Counted from the stretch's first letter, positions 484 to 57,137 are shown. The stretch: 64,000 nucleotides of DNA from Candidatus Zambryskiibacteriota bacterium (GCA_048499675.1 JASNZL010000001.1:58747-122746); one strand, 5' to 3'. The notes: generated from the letters alone by a model not told the origin. Program-made: numbers and translations.

Positions 484-535
484 TAATTTAATAATATATA
501 AAAACAAAACTCCAGCAACTGGTAAGCGCCGAAGT

Positions 536-1120: not shown

Positions 1121-1176
1121 ATTTTACTCTACATATCACATATGAGATATAATACAAAAGCCTCTTGGTATTATAT

Positions 1177-2688: not shown

Positions 2689-2725
2689 ATGATTTTATTA
2701 TATCATATATGATATAATATATATT

Positions 2726-5064: not shown

Positions 5065-5066
5065 TT

Positions 5067-6362: not shown

Positions 6363-6369
6363 AAGATAT

Positions 6370-6840: not shown

Positions 6841-9800
6841 GGAATTTCAATAGTGCCATCAATAATTCCATTCTCTCCAACATATATATTTTTATTTTTT
6901 ATATTTTGTATTGAATTACCTTCAATTTTTTTGATTTTTACTACATAATTTCCTTCAGGAACTTTAATATAAAATCTACCAAATCTATCTGTTAGAGATT
7001 TGCCAACTAGCATTCCTTCATTACTTATTGGATACACTTCCACATAAAGACCAACAGCAGATTTTCCTTTTGATACAACCTTACAACCCGCAAAAATTGA
7101 AGGTACATATTTTTTCAGTACAGCAAGTGCTATATAAAAAACTAAAAGAGTTCCACTTAAAATATTTATACTAAATATAAAGAATATGAAAGTAGAGACA
7201 AATCCAGTCCAGAATAATATTTCCAAAATACCTCTTAAATACTTCAGATGAGTTGAACTTTTATTTACCAAAACACCTTCTTCTAAGTAGTAATTATTTA
7301 GTAGTGGTATTTTAATCAATGTATTGTTATTTATTTGGTTTGGGTTAAATACACTACCGTTATAATAGTATTCATTTTCTTCGTGACTTATACTGTTATA
7401 ATTTTGTTCTATAGTATAACCTTTTTTATTTACTTCTATACAGACATCTTTGTTGTATTTTTCAAAACTAAATTCACCTTTACTGTTAGTAATTTCATAA
7501 GATAATGCTTTGCTGGTGCTTGCATCCACAATTTTTATCATTACAAAAGCAACTGGTTTTGTATTTATGGTATCAAATACCAAACCATAAATTTTTACCT
7601 TCTTTCTTACAACAAAAAATCTTATAAATGATTGTATTAATCCAATTATCCCAAACAAGAAATCCTTAATACTTTTAATTCTTCCAAGGCCAGAGAACAA
7701 TGATAAAGAATACTGCAAACTCAGAATAATCGGTGCTAATCCAAATATACTCACAGCAAATAGTTTGGATTTTTGATTATAAAAATCCATTAAATTTTGC
7801 TTAAGTGAGGCAAATTTGGAAACAAAATTTTCAAAGTCTACAACTAAAATTATCCTCTTCACTCCCTCTATAAGATCAACTATTTTTCCTCCAACATTAT
7901 TAATATTTTGAGTTATGGAGTCTGTTAAATCAGTTATAATTTCAGTATTAATGGGTGGGATTACAACTTTTGGCGACTCATCTTTCAAAACAGGTTTTTC
8001 ATCAGTTACATCTGGGTGATCGATTTTATCTTCAGGAGATGCAATTTCTGTTATGTTAGTAATATCGTCTTCTACGGGAACAGTATCAGAACCCGAGGTT
8101 TCTTCTTCGACAATAGTGCATCCCAAATTATATGGCCTAAATATTAGTTGATCCTCAGGTGTCATTACAAAATAAAAATGCGATTCAGTGGTATGCCTTT
8201 CTGCAAAGTAAATTTCAAACAAATGCTCACTACTTAAATATACTGTTCCATACATAGATCTTGGAGCATGTATTCCTGAATTATCTGTAATAAGTTTTCC
8301 ATCAATATAAAACCAAGAATCATCATCAGAAGTTATTCTGAATGAATAAAGCCCAGGTTTGAGTACTTCTACTTTTGATTTCCAAACTGCCCCAAAGTAA
8401 TACGCCTTGCCTGAAATGAGTTTTTCAGGAATGTAATTAAACGGGAAAAATGCAGAGCCAAATTTAAGATTTGGACTTGTTTTTGCAAACCTAAAATACT
8501 TATCATCATACCAGTCACCTTGCCAAGCAGATTTACTTGATAGAGGATCACCAAATATATTTTTCCACACACTATCCCATAATTTTGGTGCTACCTGCAC
8601 GTTAGGATGATTCTTTGGGTAATCATAATATTTACCAAACCAACCAAAACTATTTGTTGATACTTCACAATGATCTTCAACTGTCCAACTTTCTAACTCC
8701 TTATTTTGCAAAGCATTACTATGGTTCCAGACAGGGTCAGTTTGTGCCACAAGATCAATGTTGTATAAGGCGCACGATGGATTATTTGGGTTTGCTACGC
8801 AAAACTCGTGGTCTTGATTTCTGTATGCGCCACTACCACTTTGACTAGACCCAGAAATACCCGATTCATTATTAGTCTCTATCGGACACGTATTTGTTTT
8901 GAAAGCTACAGAAGAAGAATACAGGGTCAACACCCCTAAACCATTTCTTGCTCTAGCGCTCAGTTCATAATCAGTATCACAAGCAAGATTCAAAATATTT
9001 GCACTTGTGGTACCAAACCAACCAAAACTTTGATTGGATAATGAGTCGTATATCTCATAATCTGTCAAACTTGGGTTATTGTTAGCATTCCAAAACAACG
9101 AGACTGAATTTTGAGTAACTGTTTCTAGGGTTAATCCAGTTGGAACATTTGCTTCTGTATAAGTTGATACAAATGGAGTTATACCACTATCCCCGTTTGT
9201 ATTAGTCACTGTAGTATAAAAATCATATTTAGTATTGGGTGTAAGGTTAGAACTTGTCCACGTTGCACTATTTGTATTTCCACTATTAGTAGAATTTGTA
9301 ATATTTTGGAAATTATACGGACTAACAGCTAATCCATACTGGGAGTCAGATGAACCAGAAATTGATACTGTTATGGTGCTAGTTCCAACCTCATCTATAG
9401 ATAAATTCCCAGGATTTAAAGAATCTAAAACTTGGTAGTATATAGAATCAGAAACAATACCAGAACTACTTGCGTTGTTATAGAAAATTGCATAAACATT
9501 ATATGTTCCATTTACACAAGGATCTATTCCATCACAAATGTCCCAATTTTTAGTTGTGTTATATGGCTCCAAAACTGATCCAGAAAAATCTGAAAAATTG
9601 GAAATTCTCATGTGAGTAGTTCCTGTTTGTCCAGTTAATTGGAGTGTCACATTACGAGTTGAAACTAATGATTCGTTCTGATTTATTAATAATGCAAAAC
9701 CTTCTGTTACTGCGCCTTCCCAAGGATCTTCTGGCCCTGATCCAGATTCTGAACCATCCCCTGATACATAAACGCTCTCCGCTAATGTTATATCTGTATA

Positions 9801-12800
9801 ATTGTTAGCCTTATCAAATACTCTTATCTTGAAATTATATGTTCCTTCTGAAAGACCATAATTAGTCCACGTTGTATTATTGATGTTTCCAGAGTTTGAA
9901 TAATTGGTTGTATTTTGGAAATTGTATGGATTTGTAGCAAGTCCAGAATCCAAATCATCACCACCAGAAAAGGTTAAAGTCACAGAACTTGTGGTGGTAC
10001 TCAAAACACTTAGTGTACCTGGAATAGGTGCAATAGTATCTAGTTTGAAAGCAATATTTCCACTATTTGCACTTACCCAAGCAGATTCTTCTAAACTTGG
10101 ATCAATACTTTTAACCCTCCAATAATACCCATCTCCACTATCAACCAATGATTGACCTGCGCTACCCATAATGTAATTTCCAGAACCTTCAGTTTGACCT
10201 ACAGTAAAAGTCCTAATTCCCTGAGAACCTGAAGCAGATGTGTAATCAACTACTAAGTCAGTAAACAATGAATCTGTGGATACTTGTAATCTGTATACTA
10301 ATAGATCTGAAGCATCTGGATCATCCAATATAAATCTTAGAGTTGGTTTGTTATTATTTACCCAGCCACCACTTTGGTATTCTGAAAAACCTAAATTATA
10401 AGGATTATTTGGTGCTTGGTTACAAGGAGACGCATCTGGACTGACTGCGCCACTATATGAAGTTTCTATATTTTCAGCATTCCTTGCTTTTACATGAAAT
10501 GAATAAGAAACACCACAAGAAAGACCGCTTATAGTGGTACTTGTAGATGTAATCCATCCTGAATTAAATTCACTAGTTAAATTTTCAACATAATATTCGG
10601 TACCTATAGGATTAGAATTTGCATCCCAACTCACTAATATCTCTGATTGTGATAAAACCTCTGTATTAATATTTGTTGGGATATTTGCTCTAGTATATCT
10701 ACTTGATTCTGGTGTAGTCGACGAATTAAAAGCATTATCTAAAACATCGATTTTATAATTATATAAGGTGTTTGGAGTTAGACCTGTATTACTCCAAGTA
10801 AGACCTGTGGAAGTTGCGATTTGGCCCGTAGTTAGATTGTAATATCTATACAAACCAATACCAGACAAAGAATCACTAGATCCAGCGGTATTCATAGATA
10901 TTGATGTTGGATTAATTGATGTAAAATTTACTGTGCCAGGTATTGGCTCGGTAAGATCTAATTTAAAAGCAATACTTCCAGAATTAGCAAGAGTAAAAGA
11001 TGAGGTTGCACCAACTTCATCAATTGTTTGCACTCTCCAGTAATATGAAGTAGATTCTGAAAGTGTTTGCCCTTCATTTCCTATTGTGTATAAACCAGTA
11101 GATTCGGGTTGACCAACTATAAAATTGTTAGCGCCTTGATTTAACAAACCAGAAGTATAATCAACGACGGGAGACGAATAATTACTATCATTATCTATTT
11201 GTATTCTATACTTTACTTGTTCCAATAAATCTGGATCTGATAATGTAAAATTAAGTGTTGGTGCAGAACTACTTGCCCAACTATTGGTTACATAAATGTT
11301 CGGTCCTAAAGAAGACGGGGAGCTAGGTGCACTATTTTCTTCTCCTGTCGCAAAAGACACATTGTCACCATAAATAATTCCGTCGTTCGTGGAAAGAAAA
11401 GCCCTAACATAATATGTAGTGTTTGGACTCAATCCAGACATCGACTCTGAATAAGGACCAATCTCGTTAATAAAACCACTTTGACTAAAATTTTCATTAG
11501 TGCTTTTAAATTCTATATCAGTGAGCGCTGTATATGTGGACCCATTATTTGCAGATATTAATATTCTATATTTTTCATAAGGCGTCTCGTTTACGAGATT
11601 ATAAGTCCTTGATTCCCTTATAGCCCAACCCGTTTGACTAGTAATAGTTTGTAAATTGATCCAATCTACACCATCCCAAGCTTGAAACTGCCAATCTCTT
11701 GGAGATTCCGTAATTATTTCTGACCCAACTATTACATATCTATTTACGACTACATTATAAGGAAAACCATACTCTAAATCATATGGAGCTCCCGCATTAG
11801 AAAACCACTTTGTTGAAGTACTACTGTCAAAAGCATTGGGAACTAATGCTGAATTTTTCGATCCATATGGTGTTCCAGAAACTATGTTGTCAATCAAGTT
11901 AACATTAGGAAAATTTGGATTATTCCAAGTTGCCCAAACCACCCCATGATTATTAATGGAGTAATATCCAATATTTGTAATTGTAGAATTTGCTGTAGCT
12001 GAAGTTCCAGTATAATTATCAGATATTGAATCTGTTGTAACACTTGGATAAATTGTAGGCAAAACTGTACCATCTGTTCCGTTGTTCAAAACATTTCCAG
12101 TAATTCCTCCACCCGCAGTTCTTGATGGATTGGAAACCGCATTATTTGCATAAATAGCTATTCTACCACCACCACCACCTCTTTTAGCTGCGCTTCCAGC
12201 TCCGTTTGCAGTTATTGAACCAGTTCCCACAAGACCATCTGTTCTTAAATAAACTGAACCCCCTGAACCAGAACCAGGGTTCCAACATAAATCAATTACC
12301 TCTTCTGTGCTACCATTTGAAGAAATACTTCCATTAATAGTAGTAGTACCAGTAATATTCAAAATTATCGCGCCACCACCCCATAAGCCAACCCTATCGT
12401 TTGGAGTACCCCCACTACATGTATAACCTCCTCCTGAACCCAAATCAGTTGGTGCGGTTGAAGACCCATAAGTAGAACCCGGAGTCTCTGGAAGTCCTGC
12501 ACCAAGCGCACCAACACCACCATAGGATGCACCCGAACCAGTTGTTCCGCTATTTGTAGGAGGAGTCCCTGGGCCATTTCCAACAGGATATCCTTTTGCA
12601 TCAACATTAATGCTTCCACCAGAGTTAACAGTTAAATCTCCATTTATTGTCCAATTCAACTTAATTAACGATTCTGTTCCAGTTGTAGCATGAGTGTTGT
12701 AACCATGCGTAAGAATACCATTAACAGTAAGATTGTTATACGACCTCAAGCTTTGATTTAAATTTGAAGCTTCATTAAATATCAATCTAGAAGAAGTCGG

Positions 12801-15419
12801 GACTAGCAAATCTTGATTTTCATCCAACACAGAAACCCCTCCTCCGGAGTCGATAATTGTTCCACCAGACCAATTAATATTTGTATGATTTAAATCATAA
12901 CCTTCCAAGGCGTCAAATATACCATTTGATAGAATATTAAAATCAGTAGTATTCAATGACCCACTTAAGTAAACACTCGCAGAATTTGAAATAGTAAAAG
13001 AATCGAGATTTGTTATTTCTACTGGTACTGGAGTTAATCCAACTAAATATTCTACATTAGTTCCTAAATTATTATTACCAATAATAAGTTGCCCATAATT
13101 TTGTTCTGAAGACTTTTTATATACTGTTCCGGCTCCAGCAAATCTCTTTATTGAATTTGGGACCCTATAACCCCCTCCATTTGCGGTCATGTTTACAGTC
13201 GAACTATCATTTTCATAATAAACAGCAATTCTTCCTCCACCGCCACCAACATAAGGATTAGCTCCACCACCGTTTGCTGAAATTGTTCCCGAACCAGATA
13301 TACCACCCGTTCTAATATAAACTGAGCCACCAGAACCAGAACCTGGATTCCACGACAGATCAACGGGTTCACTGTTACTTCCATTAGCAGATATTGTACC
13401 GCTTATAGTGGTTGTGCCGACAACATTCATAATGATCGCACCACCACCCCAAAGACCTGTACTCGCGGCACCGGCTCCATTTATAGCCCTACCTCCTCCC
13501 GAACCTAAATCTGTCGGAGCCGTGGTCGAACCATATATATTCCCAAGTGTTTCTGGTGTTCCCACACCAAGAGATCCAAAACCACCATGTGATGCCCCAG
13601 TGCCAGTTGTACCACTAATAGATGGAGGAGAACCTGTTCCAGCGGTTGCATGATATCCTCTGGAGTTTGCATTTATAGATCCCAAAATTGTTGCGTCACC
13701 TCCCACCTCCAAATTAATTCTACCTAAAATTGTATTTGTGCTCGTTGAGTGGGTAATAGATGCATTTGTATAAATTATTAAGCTATTGTTTATACTCAGT
13801 GCACCATTTTCATATGCGTCATAATTAAAATTTAATACTGAAGTATCTGTACCACCAACATTTCCAATAGTTAAAGAGTTAATAGTTGTTGCGGAATTAA
13901 TATTTACAAAAATATTACTTGCAATTACAACATCGTCGTCCACCCCCGGAACCAAATCATTACTCCAATTTAATGCATCATTCCAATTACTTGTTCCGGC
14001 GCCACCATCCCACGACACTGCTGAGTTATATGCATTTACAACTTCGCCTCCAAATTCAAATATTAAATGATGTTTTCCGGTAGTGTTTATTTCGTGTGAG
14101 ATAATGGCCACATCATCACAGCTCCAACTAGGGTAAAAGATTGCGTCATCAACCAAAACTTGCACCAAAGCAGTCATATCTTCCTCGCCACAAAATATAG
14201 ATTTGAAATCCATATCATCAATCGTCTCTTGGTCAGCTGGTTTAATATACAAATCTGAAACACCATTTGTAACAAAAGATACTTTCCACTCCTGACCCGC
14301 TATAGGGTGTGAATGGACATTTAAAACTGATATTTCAAATGTGGGATCAACAACAACTGGATAAACTGAATTAGATAACCAATCAGTATCTGGAATAAGC
14401 CTGAGAGTATTCCCATTAATTTCAAAAAATATTTCTTCGCTAACTGCTCCAGTAGAATCAAACATAAGTGGAGCTGTTATTGAGAAAATTTTGAACAAGG
14501 GATTATTTGATTTTCCTTTTTTATATAAATCTATCTGATTTTTTGAAATCTGAACAAAATCATAATCGTCCATATTTAACTCATATTCAAAAAAATCAGG
14601 ATGCCCAGAACCTTCAAGTAGAATAGACTCTTTAATCCCCTTATCTGTAAATTCATAAAGAAGATCTGTTTTATCAAAAACATTTTTGTATCTTACCTTG
14701 TCTCCTTCTATAACTCTTTGTGAAGTTGTCGCCACATTGAGTATGCGCATAGTTATCCCTGAGCCAGATATCCTATTATTGGAATAGATCAATATTGGAT
14801 CTTTGAGTTCAATTGGCAGTTCAGATTTAAAAATATCATTCTCTTTTGTAATAACACTTTCAATCTCTAGATCGTTCTCTATTTCAATATCAACTATTTT
14901 TTTGTTTACAATAATCAAGGCGTCATCTTCTTCAGAAGAATCGCTCGGAGTACTATCGTTGTCACTAGACAAATTATTCGCAATTACCTCATCATTTTGT
15001 TTATAAGTTTGACTATCTTCTGATGTAACATTTGTTTTGGTATCGACACTATCACTATCTTCTTGGTTTAAAGATTCATCAAAATCATTTTCATTAGAAT
15101 CTATTTCTTGATACTCGTTTGCAGTATCTAGGTCGTTAAATTCATCAACTTGTTGAACTTCGAAATCCTTCACAGCATCAAGATTCAATTCATCCATAAG
15201 CTCACCTTCGGTATCAGAATTATTAGCCTCTATTTCAGTCGTATTATTATCTAAAATTATTTCATTAAATTCATTAGAATCATGATTCACCTCTTCGACT
15301 GAAGCAACATCTAAATCAACGATAGAAGCAAATGCGACTAAACTCTGGTTTGTTAAAAAAACAAAACCTAATACAAATGAAAAAAATCTGTTAAATTTTT
15401 TTACTGAGTAGAAATACAT
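6837..15419 (-). CDS. Giant secreted surface protein (2860 aa). It contains acidic low-complexity sequence, Gly-rich beta-helix repeats, fibronectin-III-like repeats, a discoidin (F5/8 type C) domain, a PA14 domain, C-terminal TM segments and carboxypeptidase-regulatory-like beta-sandwich domains.
   Basis: N-terminal signal peptide (FVFLTNQSLVAFASI). D/E/N/S-rich region. Repeated GSGSGGSVY(L/I)RT...ANGGG beta-helix-like units. LTPNT.Y.YKI FN3-like repeats. Discoidin-like block KWFSNAGAPYDLEYGF...TDIEFKS. PA14-like block GKAYYFGAVWKS...FYIDGKLITDNSG...FEIYFAERH. Hydrophobic C-terminal segments. Confidence 0.7.
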   Translation of the reverse strand: MYFYSVKKFNRFFSFVLGFVFLTNQSLVAFASIVDLDVASVEEVNHDSNEFNEIILDNNTTEIEANNSDTEGELMDELNLDAVKDFEVQQVDEFNDLDTANEYQEIDSNENDFDESLNQEDSDSVDTKTNVTSEDSQTYKQNDEVIANNLSSDNDSTPSDSSEEDDALIIVNKKIVDIEIENDLEIESVITKENDIFKSELPIELKDPILIYSNNRISGSGITMRILNVATTSQRVIEGDKVRYKNVFDKTDLLYEFTDKGIKESILLEGSGHPDFFEYELNMDDYDFVQISKNQIDLYKKGKSNNPLFKIFSITAPLMFDSTGAVSEEIFFEINGNTLRLIPDTDWLSNSVYPVVVDPTFEISVLNVHSHPIAGQEWKVSFVTNGVSDLYIKPADQETIDDMDFKSIFCGEEDMTALVQVLVDDAIFYPSWSCDDVAIISHEINTTGKHHLIFEFGGEVVNAYNSAVSWDGGAGTSNWNDALNWSNDLVPGVDDDVVIASNIFVNINSATTINSLTIGNVGGTDTSVLNFNYDAYENGALSINNSLIIYTNASITHSTSTNTILGRINLEVGGDATILGSINANSRGYHATAGTGSPPSISGTTGTGASHGGFGSLGVGTPETLGNIYGSTTAPTDLGSGGGRAINGAGAASTGLWGGGAIIMNVVGTTTISGTISANGSNSEPVDLSWNPGSGSGGSVYIRTGGISGSGTISANGGGANPYVGGGGGRIAVYYENDSSTVNMTANGGGYRVPNSIKRFAGAGTVYKKSSEQNYGQLIIGNNNLGTNVEYLVGLTPVPVEITNLDSFTISNSASVYLSGSLNTTDFNILSNGIFDALEGYDLNHTNINWSGGTIIDSGGGVSVLDENQDLLVPTSSRLIFNEASNLNQSLRSYNNLTVNGILTHGYNTHATTGTESLIKLNWTINGDLTVNSGGSINVDAKGYPVGNGPGTPPTNSGTTGSGASYGGVGALGAGLPETPGSTYGSSTAPTDLGSGGGYTCSGGTPNDRVGLWGGGAIILNITGTTTINGSISSNGSTEEVIDLCWNPGSGSGGSVYLRTDGLVGTGSITANGAGSAAKRGGGGGRIAIYANNAVSNPSRTAGGGITGNVLNNGTDGTVLPTIYPSVTTDSISDNYTGTSATANSTITNIGYYSINNHGVVWATWNNPNFPNVNLIDNIVSGTPYGSKNSALVPNAFDSSTSTKWFSNAGAPYDLEYGFPYNVVVNRYVIVGSEIITESPRDWQFQAWDGVDWINLQTITSQTGWAIRESRTYNLVNETPYEKYRILISANNGSTYTALTDIEFKSTNENFSQSGFINEIGPYSESMSGLSPNTTYYVRAFLSTNDGIIYGDNVSFATGEENSAPSSPSSLGPNIYVTNSWASSSAPTLNFTLSDPDLLEQVKYRIQIDNDSNYSSPVVDYTSGLLNQGANNFIVGQPESTGLYTIGNEGQTLSESTSYYWRVQTIDEVGATSSFTLANSGSIAFKLDLTEPIPGTVNFTSINPTSISMNTAGSSDSLSGIGLYRYYNLTTGQIATSTGLTWSNTGLTPNTLYNYKIDVLDNAFNSSTTPESSRYTRANIPTNINTEVLSQSEILVSWDANSNPIGTEYYVENLTSEFNSGWITSTSTTISGLSCGVSYSFHVKARNAENIETSYSGAVSPDASPCNQAPNNPYNLGFSEYQSGGWVNNNKPTLRFILDDPDASDLLVYRLQVSTDSLFTDLVVDYTSASGSQGIRTFTVGQTEGSGNYIMGSAGQSLVDSGDGYYWRVKSIDPSLEESAWVSANSGNIAFKLDTIAPIPGTLSVLSTTTSSVTLTFSGGDDLDSGLATNPYNFQNTTNYSNSGNINNTTWTNYGLSEGTYNFKIRVFDKANNYTDITLAESVYVSGDGSESGSGPEDPWEGAVTEGFALLINQNESLVSTRNVTLQLTGQTGTTHMRISNFSDFSGSVLEPYNTTKNWDICDGIDPCVNGTYNVYAIFYNNASSSGIVSDSIYYQVLDSLNPGNLSIDEVGTSTITVSISGSSDSQYGLAVSPYNFQNITNSTNSGNTNSATWTSSNLTPNTKYDFYTTVTNTNGDSGITPFVSTYTEANVPTGLTLETVTQNSVSLFWNANNNPSLTDYEIYDSLSNQSFGWFGTTSANILNLACDTDYELSARARNGLGVLTLYSSSVAFKTNTCPIETNNESGISGSSQSGSGAYRNQDHEFCVANPNNPSCALYNIDLVAQTDPVWNHSNALQNKELESWTVEDHCEVSTNSFGWFGKYYDYPKNHPNVQVAPKLWDSVWKNIFGDPLSSKSAWQGDWYDDKYFRFAKTSPNLKFGSAFFPFNYIPEKLISGKAYYFGAVWKSKVEVLKPGLYSFRITSDDDSWFYIDGKLITDNSGIHAPRSMYGTVYLSSEHLFEIYFAERHTTESHFYFVMTPEDQLIFRPYNLGCTIVEEETSGSDTVPVEDDITNITEIASPEDKIDHPDVTDEKPVLKDESPKVVIPPINTEIITDLTDSITQNINNVGGKIVDLIEGVKRIILVVDFENFVSKFASLKQNLMDFYNQKSKLFAVSIFGLAPIILSLQYSLSLFSGLGRIKSIKDFLFGIIGLIQSFIRFFVVRKKVKIYGLVFDTINTKPVAFVMIKIVDASTSKALSYEITNSKGEFSFEKYNKDVCIEVNKKGYTIEQNYNSISHEENEYYYNGSVFNPNQINNNTLIKIPLLNNYYLEEGVLVNKSSTHLKYLRGILEILFWTGFVSTFIFFIFSINILSGTLLVFYIALAVLKKYVPSIFAGCKVVSKGKSAVGLYVEVYPISNEGMLVGKSLTDRFGRFYIKVPEGNYVVKIKKIEGNSIQNIKNKNIYVGENGIIDGTIEIP

Positions 15420-24428: not shown

Positions 24429-24767
24429 ATGCATCCTCCTAAAAAATACAAAGACGAAAAATTTGTATCTTTAATCACAAAATTTGCTGGTGAATATTTG
24501 ACGGTTGAATCAGGTTTGAATTCTATGATTACAGTTACTCGTGTTGATGTATTCGATAGAGGCAGGAGAGCTACTATATACTTTACAGTTCTCCCAGAAT
24601 CAGAAGAAGCCAAAGCTTTTGATTTCCTAAAAAGAAAAAGGAGGGATTTTAGAAAGTTTGTGATGTCAAAAAAAACATTCGGCTTTGCTCCAAGTTTTGA
24701 TTTTGAAGTTGACCACGGAGAAAAAAATAGACAAAGAGTTGATAATTTACTTATGGAAAGCAATTGA
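24429..24767 (+). CDS. rbfA: Ribosome-binding factor A.
   Basis: 112 aa. Position directly after infB. ITVTRVDVFDRGRRATIYFTV is an RbfA-like KH fold. Confidence 0.6.
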   Translation: MHPPKKYKDEKFVSLITKFAGEYLTVESGLNSMITVTRVDVFDRGRRATIYFTVLPESEEAKAFDFLKRKRRDFRKFVMSKKTFGFAPSFDFEVDHGEKNRQRVDNLLMESN

Positions 24768-24808
24768 AATAAAATTAGAAAAACTGTAAGCTAAAATATG
24801 TCGGTATT

Positions 24809-24880
24809 GGGCGTCGTGGCCAAGTGGTAAGGCATGAGTCTGCAAAACTCTTATACGCGGGTTCGATTCCCGCCGACGCC
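24809..24880 (+). tRNA. tRNA-Cys (anticodon GCA).
   Basis: GGCGTCGTGGCCAAGTGGTAAGGCATGAGTCTGCAAAACTCTTATACGCGGGTTCGATTCCCGCCGACGCCT. Anticodon loop CTGCAAA; 72 nt. Confidence 0.8.
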
Positions 24881-24919
24881 TCATTTATTAAGTATGAAAA
24901 TACATAATAAATAATATAT

Positions 24920-25004
24920 GCCCGAGTGGCGGAATTGGTATACGCAGTCGACTTAAAATCGGCGGCCGTAAGGCTTGTGGGTTCAAGTCCCACCTCGGGC
25001 ACCA
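24920..25004 (+). tRNA. tRNA-Leu (anticodon TAA) with a long variable arm and encoded CCA.
   Basis: GCCCGAGTGGCGGAATTGGTA...GTCGACTTAAAATCGGC...GGGTTCAAGTCCCACCTCGGGCACCA. Its 3' end is the att site of the downstream element. Confidence 0.85.
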
Positions 25005-25160
25005 GAATGGAACTTAACGGTTTTTCGGAGACCGAATTGTGGGCGGCGCAAAGCGCCGCCCACTGATTTCCCCCCATTTTTCCAAACGAATTTGGAGCGT
25101 CGCCTTCGGCGACGCGCACTTTTCTTTCGGCGAGGAGGAGGTGCGAATCAGAAGCAATTT
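24997..25160. repeat. IR-a, left copy. A ~165-bp perfect inverted repeat that includes the att core (tRNA-Leu 3' end) plus ~130 bp of downstream sequence.
   Basis: The reverse complement of 26695..26860 is identical to 24997..25160 by direct comparison (accagaatggaacttaacggtttttcggagaccgaattgtgggcggcgcaaagcgccgcc...gaggaggaggtgcga). Confidence 0.8.
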
Positions 25161-25237
25161 GATTCATAGTATTTGCTTTACAAAAAGAATTTTTGCTATA
25201 ATGAATTTGCGTTCAACTTTTCGGGTCGTCTTTTTTA

Positions 25238-26890
25238 ATGGCCGTCCTAGCCAATTCGAGGCGACTTGAGTTGAACGCACTAGGGCGGCCATTTAAGTTG
25301 AGCGCAAAATATATGGAAAAACAAAAATTCTTTTTGTATGCTCGCAAGTCAACTGATGTCGAGGACAAGCAGGTTCTTTCGATTGAAGCACAACTCACCG
25401 AATTGCGGGCGTATGCACGCGAGAATAATTTGGAAATTTCCGCCGAAATAGTGGAAAAGCAATCTGCAAAATATCCGGGTCGCCCTTTGTTCAACAAGAT
25501 GATGGATGACATTGAAAAGAACGGCGGAAATATTCTCGCGTGGAATCCCGATCGTCTCGCCCGCAATTCGGTGGACGGAGGAAGGATTATTTATCTCCTC
25601 GACACAGGGAAACTTGTGAGCCTAAAATTTCCAACATTTTGGTGCGACAACACATCGCAGGGGAAATTTATGTTGAATATGGCATTTGGCCAAAGCAAAT
25701 ACTATGTGGATTCTCTTTCCGAAAATACGAAACGCGGACTTCGCCAAAAAGTAAGAATGGGTATATTTCCAAGTCAAGCGCCTTTGGGATATCTCAACGA
25801 TTCGAGAACAAAGACGATTGTTGTAGAAAAGAAAAAATCTCGCATTGTGCGCTTGGCTTTTGAGAGATATGTCAAAGGTAATCAACGGCTAGAAGATATT
25901 GCCGAATTTTTGGCGAAGTCCGGCGTTACAACCAGAACCGGAAGGAGAATCTCCAAAACTAGAGCGTCTTTTATCCTTTCCAATCCGTTCTATATCGGAC
26001 TATTCAAATATGGCGGTGAAATCCACGAAGGAAAGCACGAACCAATCATTTCAAAGAAACTTTTTGACGAAGCGCAAGAAATGCTACGCAAGCGCGGACA
26101 ACCTGAACGCAAGCCACAGAATGAACCACAACCTTTCTGTGGTCTCATTTCCTGCGCTTCTTGCGGAATGATGATAACTGCCGAGAACAAAACGAAGCGA
26201 CAGAAGAATGGCAATGTTCATCACTATATTTACTATCGTTGTACCAAAAAGAGAAAAGATTTTAAGTGTAACGAGCTGTCGCTTCGTTCTGAAGAAGTAG
26301 ACAAGCAGTTATCATCTCTCATTCAAAAAGTTTCTTTGCCCAAAGACTGGGCGGAAGAATTATTGAAAATGGCGGAAAATGACCACAAAAAATCCGCCCA
26401 GTCTTTGACTGCTTGCGTGAAAGAAAAAGAGGAAATGATTTCTTCTCTCTCGCAAAAACTGGAGCGACTTCTTAATGGCTATCTCGACCAAATAATTGAT
26501 CAAGTGGACTATACTTCACAGAAATCAAAACTGTTATCTGAAAAGAAGTCGCTCGAAGAAGAAATCTTTACTTTTTCACACAAGCAGAATGATTGGCTCG
26601 CACCCTTTCAATCTTGGCTAAAATACGCTCAATCCTTGGACAAAATTGCTTCTGATTCAGACCTTTTTGCTAAAAAGGTCTGGGCCAAAGAAATCTTTGG
26701 CTCGCACCTCCTCCTCGCCGAAAGAAAAGTGCGCGTCGCCGAAGGCGACGCTCCAAATTCGTTTGGAAAAATGGGGGGAAATCAGTGGGCGGCGCTTTGC
26801 GCCGCCCACAATTCGGTCTCCGAAAAACCGTTAAGTTCCATTCTGGTGTCTTTATTTTACCAAGCTCGCACCTTTTTTCAAAATCGGTGA
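25238..26890 (+). CDS. Large serine recombinase (resolvase/invertase catalytic domain, recombinase domain, zinc ribbon and coiled-coil).
   Basis: N-terminus YARKSTDVEDKQVLSIEAQLTELRAYAREN contains the catalytic Ser. Zinc-ribbon CGLISCASCGM...YYRCTKKRKDFKC. ~480-550 aa. The last ~60 codons run into inverted repeat IR-a', so the true stop may lie earlier. Confidence 0.8.
   Translation: MAVLANSRRLELNALGRPFKLSAKYMEKQKFFLYARKSTDVEDKQVLSIEAQLTELRAYARENNLEISAEIVEKQSAKYPGRPLFNKMMDDIEKNGGNILAWNPDRLARNSVDGGRIIYLLDTGKLVSLKFPTFWCDNTSQGKFMLNMAFGQSKYYVDSLSENTKRGLRQKVRMGIFPSQAPLGYLNDSRTKTIVVEKKKSRIVRLAFERYVKGNQRLEDIAEFLAKSGVTTRTGRRISKTRASFILSNPFYIGLFKYGGEIHEGKHEPIISKKLFDEAQEMLRKRGQPERKPQNEPQPFCGLISCASCGMMITAENKTKRQKNGNVHHYIYYRCTKKRKDFKCNELSLRSEEVDKQLSSLIQKVSLPKDWAEELLKMAENDHKKSAQSLTACVKEKEEMISSLSQKLERLLNGYLDQIIDQVDYTSQKSKLLSEKKSLEEEIFTFSHKQNDWLAPFQSWLKYAQSLDKIASDSDLFAKKVWAKEIFGSHLLLAERKVRVAEGDAPNSFGKMGGNQWAALCAAHNSVSEKPLSSILVSLFYQARTFFQNR
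26695..26860. repeat. IR-a', the inverted copy of the att-core region on the distal side of the recombinase gene.
   Basis: See IR-a. It contains the inverted att core aaaaaccgttaagttccattctggtgtc. Confidence 0.8.
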
Positions 26891-27262
26891 TGTTTCGCAC
26901 GCTCCACGCGCCTTGTGATTTGCAACCGCCAACTACGCTCGGCAACACCAAAGAAAAATGTCTCTTACAACTTTGGTTTTCGCGCAGGATTTTTCTGAAA
27001 AAGGAAAGGATATTTTTCTTTGGTGTTCTGCCCTCAATGCTTCGGGCAGGTGGCGGGGCTACTATGCGGACTCGGTTTTGCCAAACTATTTTTCTGGGGA
27101 TTTGGATTTGGCAAAACCTCGGCTGAATGTTGCCCGCCCGCAGAAAGGGGTCTGGGGAATGAATGCGGGCGGGCTTGTATAAAACCCAAAATTGTGGTAT
27201 GAGTATGGCAGAAGAAATCCTGGTGGATTTCTGAAAATTGCACATTTACAACCCAAAAAGGA
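26862..27262. repeat. IR-b, left copy. A ~400-bp inverted repeat whose inner end carries an SD sequence and an ATG-GAA start, ending at the first cargo gene.
   Basis: The reverse complement is identical to 32945..33356. The inner end reads ...acccaaaaaggaggtgaattATGGAAtgg, and the mirrored copy ...ccattATGGAAtcc on the other side. Confidence 0.8.
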
Positions 27263-27270
27263 GGTGAATT

Positions 27271-28008
27271 ATGGAATGGTTTCATCGCCTATACTTCGGT
27301 ACGTGGCAACTTAGCGGGCAGTTTAAGAACCTGTCTCCTGCCTACATCGAATCGCTACTACTTTTCGCCATCAGCTCCGGTATTCGTCGTTTTGATACGG
27401 CGGCCGTCTATGGTGGAGGCAAGGTAGAGGAGATGCTCGGCGCATTCTTGCCGGAAGATGCAGTCATTGTGACCAAAATTCCGGCAATCAAAAAACCCAA
27501 GCTTGAAGTCGCTGCACCAATTAATGGATTCTATACACCAGATCATCTTGATCGAGGTGTTGAGGGTTCGTTACGTCGACTCAAGAGAACACAACTCGAT
27601 ACTGTCTTGTTGCACAACTGGCTGCCATCTTGGTCGTCAGATGCAAGCAACATTCTTCATCATCTACAAGGTATGAAGAGCAAAGGCATTGTCCGTAGAG
27701 TAGGTATTTCTCTGCCGAATGATTTCTCTGCGCACATCGATGATGAGGTTCTACCTCTTATTGATGTGGTTGAAGCCCCTTACAACCCAGATCAGAAATG
27801 GGTGCTTGAACAGCTCCCAAACTTCATTGATTTAGGAAGGGAAGTGCTTCTGAGGAGTTTATTCGATCAAGGGAAGCTGCTCGCTGCATACTCCGCGGAA
27901 TCGCTTGTCGCTGACGCAGCGAAACTCGGAACATCCGTGGTTATTGGCATGACGACGGAAAATCAGGTAACACAAAACATCAACCACCTGAAAGGAGAAA
28001 CCCAGTGA
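27271..28008 (+). CDS. Aldo/keto reductase family oxidoreductase.
   Basis: 245 aa. RRFDTAAVYGGGKVEEMLGAFL is a typical AKR N-terminal motif. The gene is GC-rich. Confidence 0.55.
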   Translation: MEWFHRLYFGTWQLSGQFKNLSPAYIESLLLFAISSGIRRFDTAAVYGGGKVEEMLGAFLPEDAVIVTKIPAIKKPKLEVAAPINGFYTPDHLDRGVEGSLRRLKRTQLDTVLLHNWLPSWSSDASNILHHLQGMKSKGIVRRVGISLPNDFSAHIDDEVLPLIDVVEAPYNPDQKWVLEQLPNFIDLGREVLLRSLFDQGKLLAAYSAESLVADAAKLGTSVVIGMTTENQVTQNINHLKGETQ

Positions 28009-28916
28009 ACAAAAACCGGAATGCCGAAATTCTTGCTCACCTGAACGATTCTGTTGTTGTTCAGAACATCATCGTCCGTCATCGCGTCAAACAGATCACC
28101 AGACGATTCTTCTGTTCTCATGGCTTCATCGAAGTGGATACTCCCATCTTGGGGGATCCTCTAGATGAATATACAACGAGCCATTTTGCCGTTCGAGGCA
28201 GAGGAGGTTCGTACGCTCTTCCGCAGTCGCCACAGCTGTACAAACAACTGGCTGTAATCTCCTCGTTGGAGAAATACTTTCAGTTTCCGCATTGTTTCCG
28301 CGACGAAGAGTACGATCCGAGAAGAACTGATCAGTCGCCGGAGTTCATGCAAATTGACTTCGAACTGCGCACAACAAGTGTCGCTGAAGTCAGAACCATT
28401 GCAGAAAACCTAATGAAGAAGATCTGTGACGAATTGGGCAGTCAATGCTCAGTGCCGTTCCCGACAATCGATGCTGTCGAGTGTGTCCAGAAATACGGAA
28501 CTGACAAGCCGGATATGAGGCAATCTCCAGAGGAGTATGCTTTCCTATGGGTTGTTGACTTCCCGCTTGTGGAAACCACGGAAGGCGGAAAGTCCAAGCC
28601 GACACATCACCCCTTCGCTTTGCCTATTTTTGAAGGTGAGAACCTTCCTGAAGATCTAAGCGCGGTTCGTACTGCTTCTTACGATCTCGTGTTAAACGGC
28701 ATGGAGATTGGGGGTGGTGATTTGCGAATTCACTCAGAGAATTTGCAAAGAGAAGTCATCAGACAATTGGGCTTCAATGAGGATCAATTCGCACTTCTTC
28801 TTGAGGCGCTTAGTACGGAAACGACACCACCCCACGGAGGAATGGCAATTGGACTCGATCGGCTCGTGATGCAACTCACGCGGACGAAAAAAATCAACGA
28901 CGTCAACTTCTTTTGA
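28005..28916 (+). CDS. Truncated bacterial-type aspartyl-tRNA synthetase catalytic core (class IIb). It lacks the N-terminal anticodon-binding OB domain and the GAD insertion domain, making it an AspRS-like paralog.
   Basis: YALPQSPQLYKQLAVISSLEKYFQFPHCFRDEEYDPRRTDQSPEFMQIDFE matches AspRS motif 2 (ALPQSPQLFKQ...CFRDEDLRADRQPEFTQID). Motif 3 is PPHGGMAIGLDRLVMQLT. Only 303 aa. Confidence 0.65.
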   Translation: MNKNRNAEILAHLNDSVVVQNIIVRHRVKQITRRFFCSHGFIEVDTPILGDPLDEYTTSHFAVRGRGGSYALPQSPQLYKQLAVISSLEKYFQFPHCFRDEEYDPRRTDQSPEFMQIDFELRTTSVAEVRTIAENLMKKICDELGSQCSVPFPTIDAVECVQKYGTDKPDMRQSPEEYAFLWVVDFPLVETTEGGKSKPTHHPFALPIFEGENLPEDLSAVRTASYDLVLNGMEIGGGDLRIHSENLQREVIRQLGFNEDQFALLLEALSTETTPPHGGMAIGLDRLVMQLTRTKKINDVNFF

Positions 28917-28929
28917 AAAGGAGCTAAAA

Positions 28930-30237
28930 ATGCAACGAGCATTGATCAAAGAACTCGGATCCAAGATCGGCGAGACCGTTCGGATCTGCGGATGGGTGGG
29001 ATCGCTCCGCGATCAAAAGCGGATGCAGTTCCTTATTGTCCGTGACCACACCGGCAGTGCACAGGTAGTGCATGAAAAGTCGGCAAACGCCGAACTAACG
29101 GAAGCAATTGCCGGCCTCACGTCCGAAAGCGCAGTGGAAATCATCGGCAAGGTTATTGCCAATCCGGTGGTCAAGCTGGGCGGACTGGAGGTGGTGGCCA
29201 AGTCGGTGAACGTCGTCAGCAAAGCGGAAGCGCTTCTGCCGTTCGGCGAGAATCCGACTAGCGAAACCAGGCTGGATTGGAGATTCCTGGATCTGCGTAC
29301 TCCGCAGAACCTGCTCGTCTTCAAAATCCAGACAGCGGCCGAGCATGCCATGCGTTCGTTCTGGACAGCGGAGGGGTTCATCGAGATGCACTCCCCGAAG
29401 TTCATGGGCAGTGCAAGCGAGTCCGGCGCGGAGCTCTTCGAGGTGAAGTACTTCGATCGCAAAGCGTATCTCGCTCAGTCGCCTCAGTTCTACAAACAGA
29501 TGGCGATGGCGGCGGGGTTCGACCGTGTGTTCGAGATTGGACCGGTTTTCCGAGCCAATCCGTCTTTCACTTCGCGACACGACACGGAGTTCACCAGCGT
29601 GGACGTCGAAATCTCGTGGGTTGACTCTCACGAGGACGTCATGCAGCTTGAGGAGCGTTGGCTTCGTCACGTGCTTCAGGTGGTGAAAGCCGAGTACGGC
29701 GAGGAAATCAAGGCGACGTTCGGCACGGAGATCGTGGTCCCCGAGCTTCCGTTCCCGCGCGTGACTATGGAAGAGGCATACAACATCCTCGACCAGATGG
29801 GTCACCGCATCGAGCGAGGCGAGAAGGGTGACCTCGATCCGGAGGGTGAGCGGCTCTTGTGTCGGCACTTCCACGATAAGACCGGCCACGAGTTCGTCTT
29901 CGTCACCGAGTATCCTGCTGTGGTCCGGGCGTTCTACCACATGCGTCCCGAAGGCAAACCCAATCTCACCAAGAGCTTCGACCTTCTCTGGAAGGGGCTT
30001 GAAGTGACAACAGGAGCGCAACGGGAGCATCGCTACGAGATCCTGGTGGAGCAAGCCAAGGAGAAGGGGCTCTCGCTTGAACCCATCCAGTACTATCTGG
30101 ACTTCTTCCGCTACGGCTGTCCGCCGCACGGCGGCTACGGCTTCGGCCTCACCCGCATGCTCATGGTGATGCTGGGCGCGAAAAGCGTGCGCGAGGTGAC
30201 GTACCTCTACCGAGGCGTCAACCGACTCACTCCGTAA
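28930..30237 (+). CDS. Aspartyl- or asparaginyl-tRNA synthetase, archaeal/eukaryal-type class IIb (435 aa, N-terminal OB anticodon-binding domain plus catalytic core).
   Basis: N-terminal VRICGWVGSLRDQKRMQFLIVRDHTGSAQVV is an OB fold. SPQFYKQMAMAAGFDRVFEIGPVFRANPSFTSRHDTEFTSVDVE is motif 2. GCPPHGGYGFGLTRMLM is motif 3. Confidence 0.7.
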   Translation: MQRALIKELGSKIGETVRICGWVGSLRDQKRMQFLIVRDHTGSAQVVHEKSANAELTEAIAGLTSESAVEIIGKVIANPVVKLGGLEVVAKSVNVVSKAEALLPFGENPTSETRLDWRFLDLRTPQNLLVFKIQTAAEHAMRSFWTAEGFIEMHSPKFMGSASESGAELFEVKYFDRKAYLAQSPQFYKQMAMAAGFDRVFEIGPVFRANPSFTSRHDTEFTSVDVEISWVDSHEDVMQLEERWLRHVLQVVKAEYGEEIKATFGTEIVVPELPFPRVTMEEAYNILDQMGHRIERGEKGDLDPEGERLLCRHFHDKTGHEFVFVTEYPAVVRAFYHMRPEGKPNLTKSFDLLWKGLEVTTGAQREHRYEILVEQAKEKGLSLEPIQYYLDFFRYGCPPHGGYGFGLTRMLMVMLGAKSVREVTYLYRGVNRLTP

Positions 30238-30259
30238 CAAAAGGGGTAGGGCAGATGCT

Positions 30260-57063: not shown

Positions 57064-57137
57064 TGCCGAGGGGCGGGCTCGAACCGCCGACCTATCGCTC
57101 TTCAGGCGAGCGCTCTAGCCAACTGAGCTACCTCGGC
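57064..57137 (-). tRNA. tRNA-Phe (anticodon GAA).
   Basis: Reverse complement reads GCCGAGGTAGCTCAGTTGGCTAGAGCGCTCGCCTGAAGAGCGATAGGTCGGCGGTTCGAGCCCGCCCCTCGGCA. Anticodon loop CTGAAGA. Confidence 0.7.

Follow-up and report, generated by a model that had tools for sequence, protein, structure and literature searches.

Enzymes derived from aminoacyl-tRNA synthetases, and additional copies of the synthetases themselves, are established signs of antibiotics that act on translation. Nearly all of the examples that we know of are from actinomycetes or from bacteriocin clusters carried on plasmids, and to our knowledge Patescibacteria are thought to have almost no secondary metabolism. Several synthetase-type catalytic cores lack tRNA-binding parts and ligate the amino acid that they activate to an acceptor other than tRNA; AsnA/AS-AR, EpmA (PoxA) and the aa:carrier-protein ligases are of class II, and MshC is of class I. 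The nearest precedent for the locus described here is the ascamycin system of Streptomyces sp. 80H647, with the AlaRS AcmD, the truncated AlaRS-like aminoacyl transferase AcmF and the hydrolase AcmE, which removes Ala (PMC12945691). AcmF has lost the activation residues for ATP and amino acid, keeps its tRNA-recognition domain and uses Ala-tRNA; the ascamycin scaffold is a nucleoside sulfamate that mimics aminoacyl-AMP, and SbzA is a further published precedent (PMC12945691). Additional synthetase copies serve self-immunity in antibiotic clusters (SbzA/IleRS, AgnB2/LeuRS and albomycin SerRS2), and a synthetase gene that a review labels asnS/aspartate tRNA synthetase is present in some mcc-like clusters of actinobacteria, apparently also for self-immunity (PMC8323819, PMC9437257).

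The window analysed here is a 64,000-nt stretch of Candidatus Zambryskiibacteriota bacterium (GCA_048499675.1 JASNZL010000001.1:58747-122746); positions are counted from its first letter (Table 1). Two adjacent synthetase-type genes, ORF1 and ORF2, lie on an 8.5-kb island with a GC content of ~50% against ~35% for the host, varying between 44 and 58% across the island against ~35% in its flanks. The island is inserted at tRNA-Leu by a large serine recombinase. It shares with other large-serine-recombinase islands at tRNA genes the Resolvase/Recombinase/zinc-ribbon recombinase, insertion at the tRNA 3' end, terminal direct repeats and foreign GC, features that identify it as an integrative element of this class and bear out a first-pass annotation that had placed the genes on a mobile element. 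Unlike typical islands of the class, its cargo sits between the arms of a perfect inverted repeat, and the recombinase gene itself contains a further inverted copy with att sequence. The inner ~250 nt of the inverted repeat are 74-92% conserved upstream of aldo-keto reductase or radical SAM (rSAM) genes in related cassettes; the repeat has no match in Rfam. The recombinase, whose true start is probably near residue 26, is 93% identical over its full length to an independent homologue (P0515), and other homologues adjoin a class I LysRS (LysRS-I) cassette in L108 (88%) and an Asp cassette in L005 (66% at the nucleotide level). None of the seven island proteins matched the PADLOC anti-phage models, and neither PADLOC nor literature searches yielded anything that anchors the function of the cargo.

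Table 1. Features of the island and its integration site, in window coordinates.
Feature	Position	Strand	Remarks
tRNA-Leu(taa), island integration target	24920..25004	+	ARAGORN; Rfam tRNA 56 bits; 3' end overlaps left direct repeat
attL, 42-nt direct repeat	24984..25025	.	Direct-repeat family D2, 95% identical to 33497-33538; at 3' end of tRNA-Leu(taa)
Large serine recombinase, island integrase	25238..26890	+	Pfam Resolvase, Recombinase, Zn_ribbon_recom
Inverted copy of 25000-25146 (147 nt, 100%)	26702..26848	.	Within 3' end of recombinase gene; contains att-core copy
427-nt perfect inverted repeat, left arm	26846..27272	+	Duplicated promoter/leader ending in RBS and ATG of reductase gene
Short aldo-keto reductase, 245 aa	27271..28008	+	Pfam Aldo_ket_red, E 1.5e-25
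ORF1, stand-alone bacterial-type AspRS catalytic core, putative aspartate ligase	28005..28916	+	303 aa; domain and alignment evidence
ORF2, complete archaeal-type AspRS, single-gene insertion, predicted to be co-transcribed with ORF1	28930..30237	+	435 aa; domain, score and DNA-homology evidence
G+C-rich hairpin then T run	30243..30275	.	Between convergent ORF2 and S51 genes; read in sequence
S51-family serine peptidase (PepE/cyanophycinase family)	30260..30934	-	Pfam Peptidase_S51, E 9e-28; PDB sequence matches Lmo0363, PepE
Nucleotidyltransferase-fold protein, kanamycin nucleotidyltransferase-like, 251 aa	30952..31707	-	Gene call; model pLDDT 95
Radical SAM enzyme, spore-photoproduct-lyase (SPL)-like, 409 aa	31704..32933	-	Additional conserved C-terminal cysteines
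427-nt inverted repeat, right arm	32935..33361	-	Promoter/leader of rSAM-nucleotidyltransferase-S51 operon
attR, 42-nt direct repeat	33497..33538	.	Partner of 24984-25025

ORF1 had been described as an AspRS core without OB and GAD domains, and the description holds. The AspRS motifs quoted for it are present, its only Pfam match is tRNA-synt_2 (E 4e-74; residues 10-303 against profile positions 10-304 of 308), and the same search gave no tRNA_anti-codon (OB) match. Its alignment with Thermus thermophilus AspRS falls into two blocks (19-174 with 141-296, 175-300 with 415-545), so that the OB domain and hinge (residues 1-140 of the latter) and the GAD insertion (297-414) are cleanly missing; ORF1 begins at the equivalent of residue ~123-140. 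Nor is an N-terminal anticodon-binding domain concealed in another frame upstream, a possibility that the first-pass annotation had raised, since the DNA there encodes the aldo-keto reductase, which overlaps ORF1 at GTGA. The C-terminal extension is missing too, and on the NF001750 model ORF1 reaches 272 bits, below the cut-off of 443. Judged from these absences, it cannot be a canonical synthetase, as had been argued.

The residues that form Asp-AMP are kept (QSPQ..K, the arginine of motif-2 FRDE, QxD, HHPF, GGGxxR and motif-3 GLDR) and are invariant or nearly so over 25 aligned sequences. Three parts are remodelled or lost: the PEGARD flipping loop, the motif-2 loop (extended by 3-4 residues) and the AFPK extension at the C terminus; in AspRS the flipping loop and the motif-2 loop touch the tRNA acceptor end. 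PEGARD occurs in 80 of the 117 sequences analysed, all of them outside the stand-alone cores (0 of 36). The length of ORF1-type proteins (283-306 aa) is conserved across 15 close clusters at 61-81% identity, which argues that ORF1 is a gene and not a fragment. Its closest full-length relatives are the GAD-less AspRS of Omnitrophota, DPANN and CPR. As a class II core stripped of tRNA-binding parts, ORF1 resembles the stand-alone ligases introduced above. It differs from them in its bacterial-type AspRS descent, and an earlier suggestion that it is AsnA-like or EpmA-like is not upheld by family score: it falls far under the cut-offs for AsnA (69.6 bits against 309 for NF005054, 55.8 bits against 368 for NF005052) and for EpmA/PoxA (56.6 against 286.9 for TIGR00462). 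It is also absent from lists of known AspRS paralogues (AS-A, ErdS).

ORF1 is one member of a conserved five-gene cassette made up of the aldo-keto reductase, the SPL-like radical SAM enzyme, the kanamycin-nucleotidyltransferase-like protein, the S51 peptidase and one synthetase-derived gene. The cassette is kept in L003, L007, ERZ27297709, L120, L124 and L125 and in part in L005; it is frequent in Patescibacteria and occurs also in some Firmicutes. Among 69 metagenome loci with a full-length rSAM homologue, the nearby gene was AlaRS-like in 27, LysRS-I in 20, an AspRS core in three and aa:carrier-protein-ligase-like in one; for 16 loci the contigs were too short for a call, and two had no synthetase-type gene. 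Between Asp, Ala and Lys versions the rSAM enzymes share ~90% identity, and the exchangeable part of the cassette is the synthetase gene. Pairs of a truncated and a fuller synthetase occur in all three families: AspRS core with AspRS (this window and L014), AlaRS (372 and 430 aa) and LysRS-I (308 and 527 aa, in L155), while some Lys versions have a full-length LysRS-I alone.

The neighbouring genes are as they had been described, radical SAM, nucleotidyltransferase-like and S51 peptidase. The best PDB matches to the nucleotidyltransferase model are ANT(4') (TM 0.58, E 2e-6), then LinB and ANT(3'')(9), and fusions of nucleotidyltransferase and rSAM exist (P0343). The S51 gene, with Met19 probably its true start, is found in nearly all cassette versions, and the aldo-keto reductase, in which the D/Y/K/H catalytic residues can be read, keeps a length of 243-250 aa in most CPR versions. 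A Thermoactinomyces version adds a carrier protein, an aa:carrier-protein-ligase-like enzyme, two ATP-grasp ligases, an MFS exporter and a protein with a weak condensation-domain match, which by gene content looks like the make-up of a small-molecule cluster; in L101, a distant version, an aa:carrier-protein-ligase-like enzyme is used with a carrier protein. Full-length AspRS genes adjoin the AspRS cores of two distant, unrelated clusters (L014 and L013). An AspRS-core cluster from Dactylosporangium has a full bacterial AspRS at its end. In broad terms, the proposed small module for biosynthesis or immunity on a mobile element holds up, given the conserved cassette, its distant versions and the two AspRS-core clusters with an adjoining AspRS.

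ORF2 has an OB domain (E 4e-11) and tRNA-synt_2 (E 5e-80) in Pfam, and the motifs quoted for it are likewise present. With the NCBIfam model NF003483 (aspartate--tRNA(Asn) ligase) it scores 487.5 bits, above the cut-off of 353, and its alignment with Thermococcus kodakarensis AspRS covers the full length (14-435 to 16-438, E 7e-107). AsnRS models stay under their cut-offs, so that of the earlier label, a complete archaeal-type AspRS/AsnRS, only the AspRS half stands. ORF2 and its clade have FRAN in motif 2 in place of the canonical fRxE glutamate; in the alignments listed, five solved AspRS of archaeal/eukaryal type have FRAE or WRME at this place, and the AspRS copy of L014 has the same unusual FRAN. 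Homologues 67-95% identical to ORF2 are common in Patescibacteria, usually within a high-GC 92aa-AsnRS-like-AspRS trio in unrelated contexts. By this distribution ORF2 is of an AspRS type widespread in the phylum, and the notion of an exotic archaeal import falls away.

ORF2 is missing from every sister Asp cassette. Its DNA homology to L012 (92%) and to L008-L011 (84%) spans exactly 28916-30239, and its GC is 58.5% against 48% for ORF1, a pattern that marks it as a secondary, precise single-gene insertion into the ORF1 operon. The gene begins 13 nt past the ORF1 stop, with its own RBS (AAGGAG, 7 nt before the ATG), and precedes a probable bidirectional terminator shared with the convergent operon (the hairpin of Table 1); from this placement it is predicted to be expressed with ORF1. 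A tblastn search of the 64-kb window found no further AspRS or AsnRS, and ORF2 may be the host's only AspRS.

That relatives share the helper enzymes yet carry Ala- or Lys-specific synthetase genes suggests a family of cassettes for amino-acid-tagged small molecules, possibly antibiotics. Our preferred reading, held with about equal belief and doubt, is that the cassette, which moves horizontally and rides here on a serine-recombinase island, produces a small molecule that bears an amino acid and may be based on a nucleoside, with ORF1 as a tRNA-independent aspartate ligase and ORF2 as a back-up or resistant AspRS or a supplier of Asp-tRNA. Of the four constant genes, the short reductase, the SPL-like radical SAM enzyme and the ANT(4')-like nucleotidyltransferase would make a common scaffold, perhaps nucleoside- or sugar-like, and the synthetase-derived gene beside the reductase would select and activate the amino acid to be attached. 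ORF1 would form Asp-AMP as AspRS does and, because all of its tRNA-binding appendages are gone, would hand the aspartate to the scaffold and not to tRNA. The fourth constant gene product, the S51 hydrolase, would take off the aminoacyl group or keep it under control, in self-protection or maturation. ORF2, the later arrival in the operon, would most likely sustain Asp-tRNA synthesis against an aspartyl compound that inhibits AspRS; less probably, it may feed Asp-tRNA to the pathway.

Some features of the wider family sit awkwardly with this preferred reading. Most Asp cassettes are without ORF2, which counts against an extra AspRS as a requirement; some Lys versions have only a full-length LysRS-I, which a tRNA-dependent route fits at least as well as direct ligation; and the presence of S51 in Asp, Ala and Lys versions alike means that a PepE-like role specific to Asp cannot apply throughout. 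The likeness of ORF2 to self-resistance copies is that an extra full-length synthetase lies inside a cluster that would handle the same amino acid, which holds also for the copies in L014 and L013. It differs in being an AspRS type common in the phylum, in being missing from most sister cassettes, and in that no second, housekeeping AspRS is seen within the window. Microcin C offers a partial parallel, in that a serine peptidase able in principle to cleave aspartyl-X adjoins genes for a putative aspartyl compound with AspRS as its likely target. Here, however, the peptidase is of family S51 and not S66 (MccF), and the amino acid varies among cassette versions; there is no ThiF domain (MccB) among the six cargo proteins, and no cassette gene encodes an MccA-type precursor peptide, so the microcin-C-type link proposed at first is not upheld.

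A bolder form of the same idea, which we consider unlikely, sees the cassette as a programmable source of molecules that mimic aminoacyl-adenylates or aminoacyl-nucleosides. In it, the reductase, the ANT-like nucleotidyltransferase and the SPL-like radical SAM enzyme would build a stable nucleotide-like warhead, and exchange of the synthetase gene (AspRS core, AlaRS fragments, class I LysRS or carrier-protein ligase) would redirect the toxin to another synthetase. Immunity would fall to the S51 hydrolase and, in some versions, also to an additional insensitive synthetase such as ORF2 with its Glu-to-Asn change in motif 2. If so, ultra-small Patescibacteria and some Firmicutes would possess a mobile antibiotic system whose amino acid can be swapped.

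Other explanations have to be weighed against the preferred one, tRNA-independent aspartate ligation to a small molecule. The ascamycin precedent suggests a two-enzyme route in which ORF2 charges tRNA-Asp, ORF1 moves the aspartate from tRNA to the scaffold and S51 undoes the transfer, in the manner of AcmE. Three such genes do lie together here, coding for a canonical synthetase, a truncated paralogue from its own family and a hydrolase that would remove the amino acid (S51), with ORF1 and ORF2 in one operon, and truncated-plus-fuller pairs recur for Asp, Ala and LysRS-I. We nevertheless think this route improbable. AcmF is AlaRS-derived, lacks the activation residues and has a tRNA-recognition domain, whereas ORF1 is AspRS-derived and is the opposite on both counts; most Asp cassettes do without ORF2, although a host AspRS could supply their Asp-tRNA. 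The hydrolase in acm is an alpha/beta enzyme, not S51; the reductase, the SPL-like rSAM and the ANT-like nucleotidyltransferase have no counterpart there; and the host is an actinomycete, as against a Patescibacteria-like organism here. ORF2 could instead be functionally unlinked to ORF1, a spreading housekeeping AspRS that landed by chance and possibly replaced the host aspS, leaving the five-gene cassette as the only unit. Its absence from sister Asp cassettes, its deviant GC and the abundance of its homologues elsewhere, usually in the trio, favour such an accident; its predicted expression with ORF1, together with the full AspRS genes that adjoin AspRS cores in L014 (also FRAN) and L013, makes us give it little weight.

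The cassette might also act on a macromolecule, modifying or repairing tRNAs (Asp, Ala, Lys) or aminoacylating a protein, as EpmA/EpmB do with EF-P, with the synthetase-derived gene setting target or amino-acid specificity. The closest structural relative of the rSAM enzyme acts on DNA, and synthetases bind tRNA, so a nucleic-acid target may be envisaged. We rate this as quite unlikely, given the small-molecule hallmarks of the Firmicute versions, the resemblance of the nucleotidyltransferase over its whole length to small-molecule O-nucleotidyltransferases (ANT(4'), LinB), the lack of a conserved target gene within the cassette and the low EpmA score of ORF1. Least credible, to the point that we set it aside, is ORF1 as an enzyme like asparagine synthetase A (Asp + NH3 to Asn) or as an AspRS fragment in decay. 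Among stand-alone cores derived from AspRS, AsnA is the classic case (PMC9437257), and its models do match ORF1 weakly. The scores are nonetheless far too low, and sister cassettes with ~90% identical rSAM enzymes hold AlaRS-like or LysRS-I genes in the same place, which would be senseless for asparagine synthesis; decay is hard to reconcile with 36 homologues of conserved length in which the catalytic residues do not vary.

With five or six genes the cassette is small, and it is widely distributed; its synthetase gene is swapped across both synthetase classes while the other cassette genes stay ~90% identical. If our preferred reading is right, it would be a natural case of modular re-targeting through exchange of the amino-acid-selecting enzyme, and ORF1 would represent a new stand-alone AspRS-core family beside AsnA and ErdS. 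It would also provide a small gene set with which to find a new aminoacylated metabolite and its immunity mechanism, and would explain the horizontal movement of AspRS, AlaRS and LysRS genes among these bacteria.

ORF1, which the first-pass annotation had described as an AspRS core without the OB domain and the GAD insertion, consists of a class IIb catalytic domain only (Pfam tRNA-synt_2, E 4e-74, residues 10-303). Its best family models are those of bacterial AspRS, although its 272 bits to NF001750 fall well under the 443-bit equivalog cut-off. The alignment to T. thermophilus AspRS breaks into two blocks (19-174 to 141-296, and 175-300 to 415-545), so that the OB domain with the hinge (1-140) and the GAD insertion (297-414) are cleanly missing, as had been claimed. 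An OB domain in a corrected upstream frame was looked for; the ORF1 start overlaps the stop of the aldo-keto reductase gene (GTGA), which occupies that DNA, and the upstream frame is thus unable to supply one. The Pfam check proposed with that description found nothing but the core in ORF1, and an OB domain plus a catalytic domain in ORF2.

We searched 5.8 billion proteins for relatives of ORF1. The close ones form 15 clusters (283-306 aa, 61-81% identity); a more distant group, also without the OB domain (300-422 aa, 40-51% identity), includes proteins of Saccharibacteria, Dactylosporangium and Nocardia. Among full-length proteins, those closest to ORF1 are AspRSs without the GAD insertion (440-470 aa) in Woesearchaeota, Nanoarchaeia and Omnitrophota. 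A scan of GTDB species representatives gave no close relative; the best match, 39% identical, was in Patescibacteria MAGs, where the uninterrupted matches of ~900 nt indicate that the GAD insertion is absent. ORF1 belongs to a gene family and is no fragment; we reject the idea that it is a pseudogene.

In a 25-sequence alignment, the positions for aspartate and ATP binding and for adenylate formation were invariant or nearly so: QSPQ..K, the motif-2 Arg in FRDE, QxD, HHPF, GGGxxR and the motif-3 Arg in GLDR. As derived features, all 36 stand-alone cores have PEGARD, the flipping-loop motif, replaced with its Glu kept, a motif-2 loop longer by 3-4 residues, and no C-terminal AFPK extension. PEGARD is kept in 80 of the 117 sequences analysed, all 80 outside the stand-alone cores. 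Structural work on AspRS has established that its flipping loop and motif-2 loop touch the acceptor end of the tRNA. We infer that ORF1 still forms Asp-AMP and passes the aspartate to a non-tRNA acceptor. An AsnA-like or EpmA-like function had been suggested, but ORF1 falls below both family cut-offs, and the synthetase swapping described below also speaks against both. The N-extended cores (P0016-P0026) did not group with the other cores in a midpoint-rooted NJ tree, and shared indels are the sole feature suggesting a common origin of the two. A 2022 review names AS-A and ErdS as AspRS paralogues and does not list the ORF1 type (PMC9437257); in the literature on AspRS-like and truncated AspRS proteins we found no description of a stand-alone bacterial-type core.

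Features of the island and its surroundings (window coordinates)
Feature	Coordinates	Size	Remarks
Very large ORF, host part of window	6837-15419 (-)	2860 aa	
tRNA-Leu(taa)	24920-25004		last 21 bases open the 42-nt direct repeat
Direct repeat	24984-25025; 33497-33538	42 nt	
Large serine recombinase		 	between the 42-nt repeats; Resolvase, Recombinase and zinc-ribbon domains
Perfect inverted repeat	25000-25146; 26702-26848	147 nt	
Perfect inverted repeat	26846-27272; 32935-33361	427 nt	brackets 5.66-kb cargo
Hairpin-rich repeat	26938-27124; 33083-33269	~190 nt	outer part of 427-nt repeat; no Rfam match
Aldo-keto reductase		245 aa	cassette partner; catalytic Asp/Tyr/Lys/His readable in sequence
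ORF1	28005-28916 (+)	303 aa	AspRS core
ORF2	28930-30237 (+)	435 aa	motif 2 at 29550-29580; C-terminus 30190-30237
Radical SAM enzyme		roughly 409 aa	cassette partner
Nucleotidyltransferase-like protein		roughly 251 aa	cassette partner
S51 peptidase			cassette partner
Stretch between cargo and attR	33394-33464	~70 nt	83% identical to 56952-57022, adjoining tRNA-Phe (57063-57137)
Protein just outside attR	33622-34356	244 aa	weak N-terminal helix-turn-helix match; GC 31%; no family assignment
Direct repeat	34731-34822; 34909-35000	92 nt	96% identical; begins in tRNA-Leu(tag) 3' end (region 34664-35000)

Homologues of ORF1 occur with the same four partners on contigs L003, L007, L120, L124 and L125 and on an ENA contig; contig L005 has a partial cassette and also a homologous serine recombinase. 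The radical SAM (rSAM) family is much larger than that of ORF1 (217 matches), and we classified 69 metagenome loci, each with a full-length rSAM homologue, by the synthetase gene nearby. This was AlaRS-like at 27 loci (usually a 430-aa protein with a more divergent one of 372 aa), a class I LysRS at 20 (usually full length with its anticodon-binding domain), an AspRS core at three and an amino acid:carrier-protein-ligase-like gene at one. No synthetase gene was seen at 16 loci on contigs too short to judge, nor at two with at least 4.5 kb on both sides. Between the Asp, Ala and Lys versions the rSAM enzymes share about 90% identity. What lies directly downstream of the reductase varies from version to version and is LysRS-I, the AspRS core or the 430-aa AlaRS fragment. 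It is the synthetase gene that is exchanged in this cassette.

Pairs of a truncated synthetase with a fuller one occur repeatedly: AspRS core and AspRS in the window and in L014, AlaRS proteins of 372 and 430 aa, and a LysRS-I core of 308 aa with a 527-aa enzyme in L155. The last is a gut metagenome contig whose positions 195-7272 hold reductase, radical SAM enzyme, S51, the LysRS-I pair and a metallophosphoesterase; the 308-aa catalytic core lacks the anticodon domain and its partner is full. In a Thermoactinomyces version the additional genes encode a carrier protein, an amino acid:carrier-protein-ligase-like enzyme of class II, an MFS exporter, two ATP-grasp ligases and a protein that matches a condensation domain weakly. 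In Dactylosporangium, a cluster with an AspRS core that also encodes a PIG-L deacetylase, ATP-grasp ligases and an MFS pump has a full bacterial AspRS at its end. Neither the rSAM enzyme nor the 251-aa protein matched any PDB sequence at E up to 1, and structure prediction was required for them. A PADLOC scan of seven island proteins found no match. Scans of viral contigs found no rSAM relative, and for ORF2 relatives only ~50% identical, giving no sign that the cassette would be phage-borne. Literature searches found nothing relevant on a cluster of S51, radical SAM, reductase and synthetase genes, nor any published description of this cassette.

The genome in the window has a low GC content of about 30-38%, which rises to 44-58% in a block at about 25-33.5 kb; the L003 cassette likewise has a GC above that of its flanking genes. 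The assignment to Patescibacteria is based on the names borne by relatives of the cargo genes. An independent homologue matches the recombinase from end to end at 93% identity, and on contig L108 a Lys cassette comes with a recombinase that shares 88% identity with the one in the window. The 427-nt inverted repeat could be suspected to be an assembly artefact. We reject this, because the identical cargo is found in two Logan assemblies from other samples (L001, L002), both breaking inside both arms, and because homologous inverted repeats, of 184 nt in L007 and about 100 nt in L095, surround related cassettes. The inner end of the repeat provides the RBS and ATG of two inward-facing operons; its inner ~250 nt, with a promoter-like box pair and a short hairpin in the 5' UTR, recur at 74-92% conservation in front of the reductase or radical SAM genes of other cassettes. 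Our best reading of the repeat is a promoter and leader that has been duplicated and would co-regulate the two convergent operons. Rfam searches of 24500-34500 at E up to 1 found tRNAs only, with no T-box or riboswitch in the repeat.

Other repeats accompany these. Other Patescibacteria contigs also have the ~190-nt repeat, as an inverted pair with 82-84% identity (L008/L009, 10342-10530 and 13217-13405), where it flanks sortase-region genes a few kb from an AsnRS-like/AspRS pair. The repeat family could be MITE-like or regulatory. At its 3' end the recombinase gene carries an inverted copy of the att core with adjacent sequence, and this C-terminus is kept in the 93% identical homologue; the 147-nt repeat may enable the recombinase segment to invert or may reflect the build of attP. 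The 92-nt direct repeat is probably the relic attachment site of another integrated element, and the ~70-nt stretch may be another short dispersed repeat.

ORF2 had been annotated as a complete archaeal-type AspRS/AsnRS. Completeness and type stand; the AsnRS alternative does not. On the equivalog model for archaeal-type aspartate--tRNA(Asn) ligase, ORF2 scores 487.5 bits against a cut-off of 353, and T. kodakarensis AspRS aligns with it end to end (E 7e-107), identifying it by sequence as AspRS-type. It carries FRAN at motif 2 and YLYRG in its tail, as do the whole of its Patescibacteria clade and the AspRS adjoining a different AspRS core in L014, whereas an acidic motif-2 residue (FRAE or WRME) is found in all five solved archaeal/eukaryal-type AspRSs whose alignments were printed, and the T. 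kodakarensis enzyme has an FPRD tail. The window holds no further AspRS or AsnRS besides ORF1 and ORF2.

ORF2 is missing from every sister Asp cassette that we examined. DNA similarity to L012 (92%) and L008-L011 (84%) extends exactly over 28916-30239, that is, the gene and a 13-nt leader bearing its RBS, and GC is 58.5% in ORF2, 48% in ORF1 and 37% in S51; ORF2 is a later insertion into the cassette. Patescibacteria MAGs commonly carry homologues of it (67-95% identity), usually after a 92-aa gene and a divergent AsnRS-like gene, a high-GC trio within unrelated low-GC contexts. In L008-L012 (e.g. L008 6370-9308) the trio encodes proteins of 92, 440 and 435 aa, the AsnRS-like 440-aa protein scoring under the AsnRS cut-off; GC is 51-58% against genome flanks of 29-43%, the contexts differ, and the trio looks like a horizontally spreading synthetase pair.

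The closest published system to the cassette is that of ascamycin, in which AcmD (AlaRS) makes Ala-tRNA, AcmF (truncated, AlaRS-like) moves the alanine to a nucleoside sulfamate and the hydrolase AcmE takes it off again (PMC12945691). A constant enzyme set with an exchangeable amino-acid-selecting enzyme and a hydrolase, together with the exporter and peptide-ligase genes of distant versions and the occasional extra full-length synthetases, points to aminoacylation of a small molecule; a macromolecular target, tRNA or protein, is a rival reading. We hold this general mechanism, a biosynthetic unit for an aminoacylated small molecule, to be about evenly poised between right and wrong, and any specific product to be much less probable. 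The constant enzymes would act with an exchangeable synthetase-derived gene product that selects the amino acid. An AcmF-type tRNA-dependent route is a rival for this step; unlike AcmF, ORF1 keeps all activation residues and has no tRNA-binding domain, which favours direct, tRNA-independent ligation of aspartate by ORF1. From the SPL-like (spore photoproduct lyase-like) rSAM and the ANT-like nucleotidyltransferase one might guess at a scaffold resembling a nucleotide or a sugar.

For ORF2, a link to microcin-C-type compounds had been raised; a microcin-C-type system was disfavoured by the tests run, and we reject it. Self-immunity by extra synthetase copies is well documented, and in some actinobacterial mcc-like clusters a synthetase gene labelled asnS/aspartate tRNA synthetase apparently serves it (PMC8323819; PMC9437257). 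Self-immunity is the most economical, if unproven, role for ORF2; a rival reading makes it an unrelated hitch-hiker. Its own AAGGAG, and a hairpin and T run after it that are shared with the convergent S51 gene, indicate that it is expressed with ORF1.

The underlying logic is known from antibiotic clusters, which contain synthetase-derived ligases and extra synthetase copies. What is unusual here is that the synthetase is swapped across both classes, that the cassette is a compact mobile unit, and that it is prevalent in Patescibacteria.
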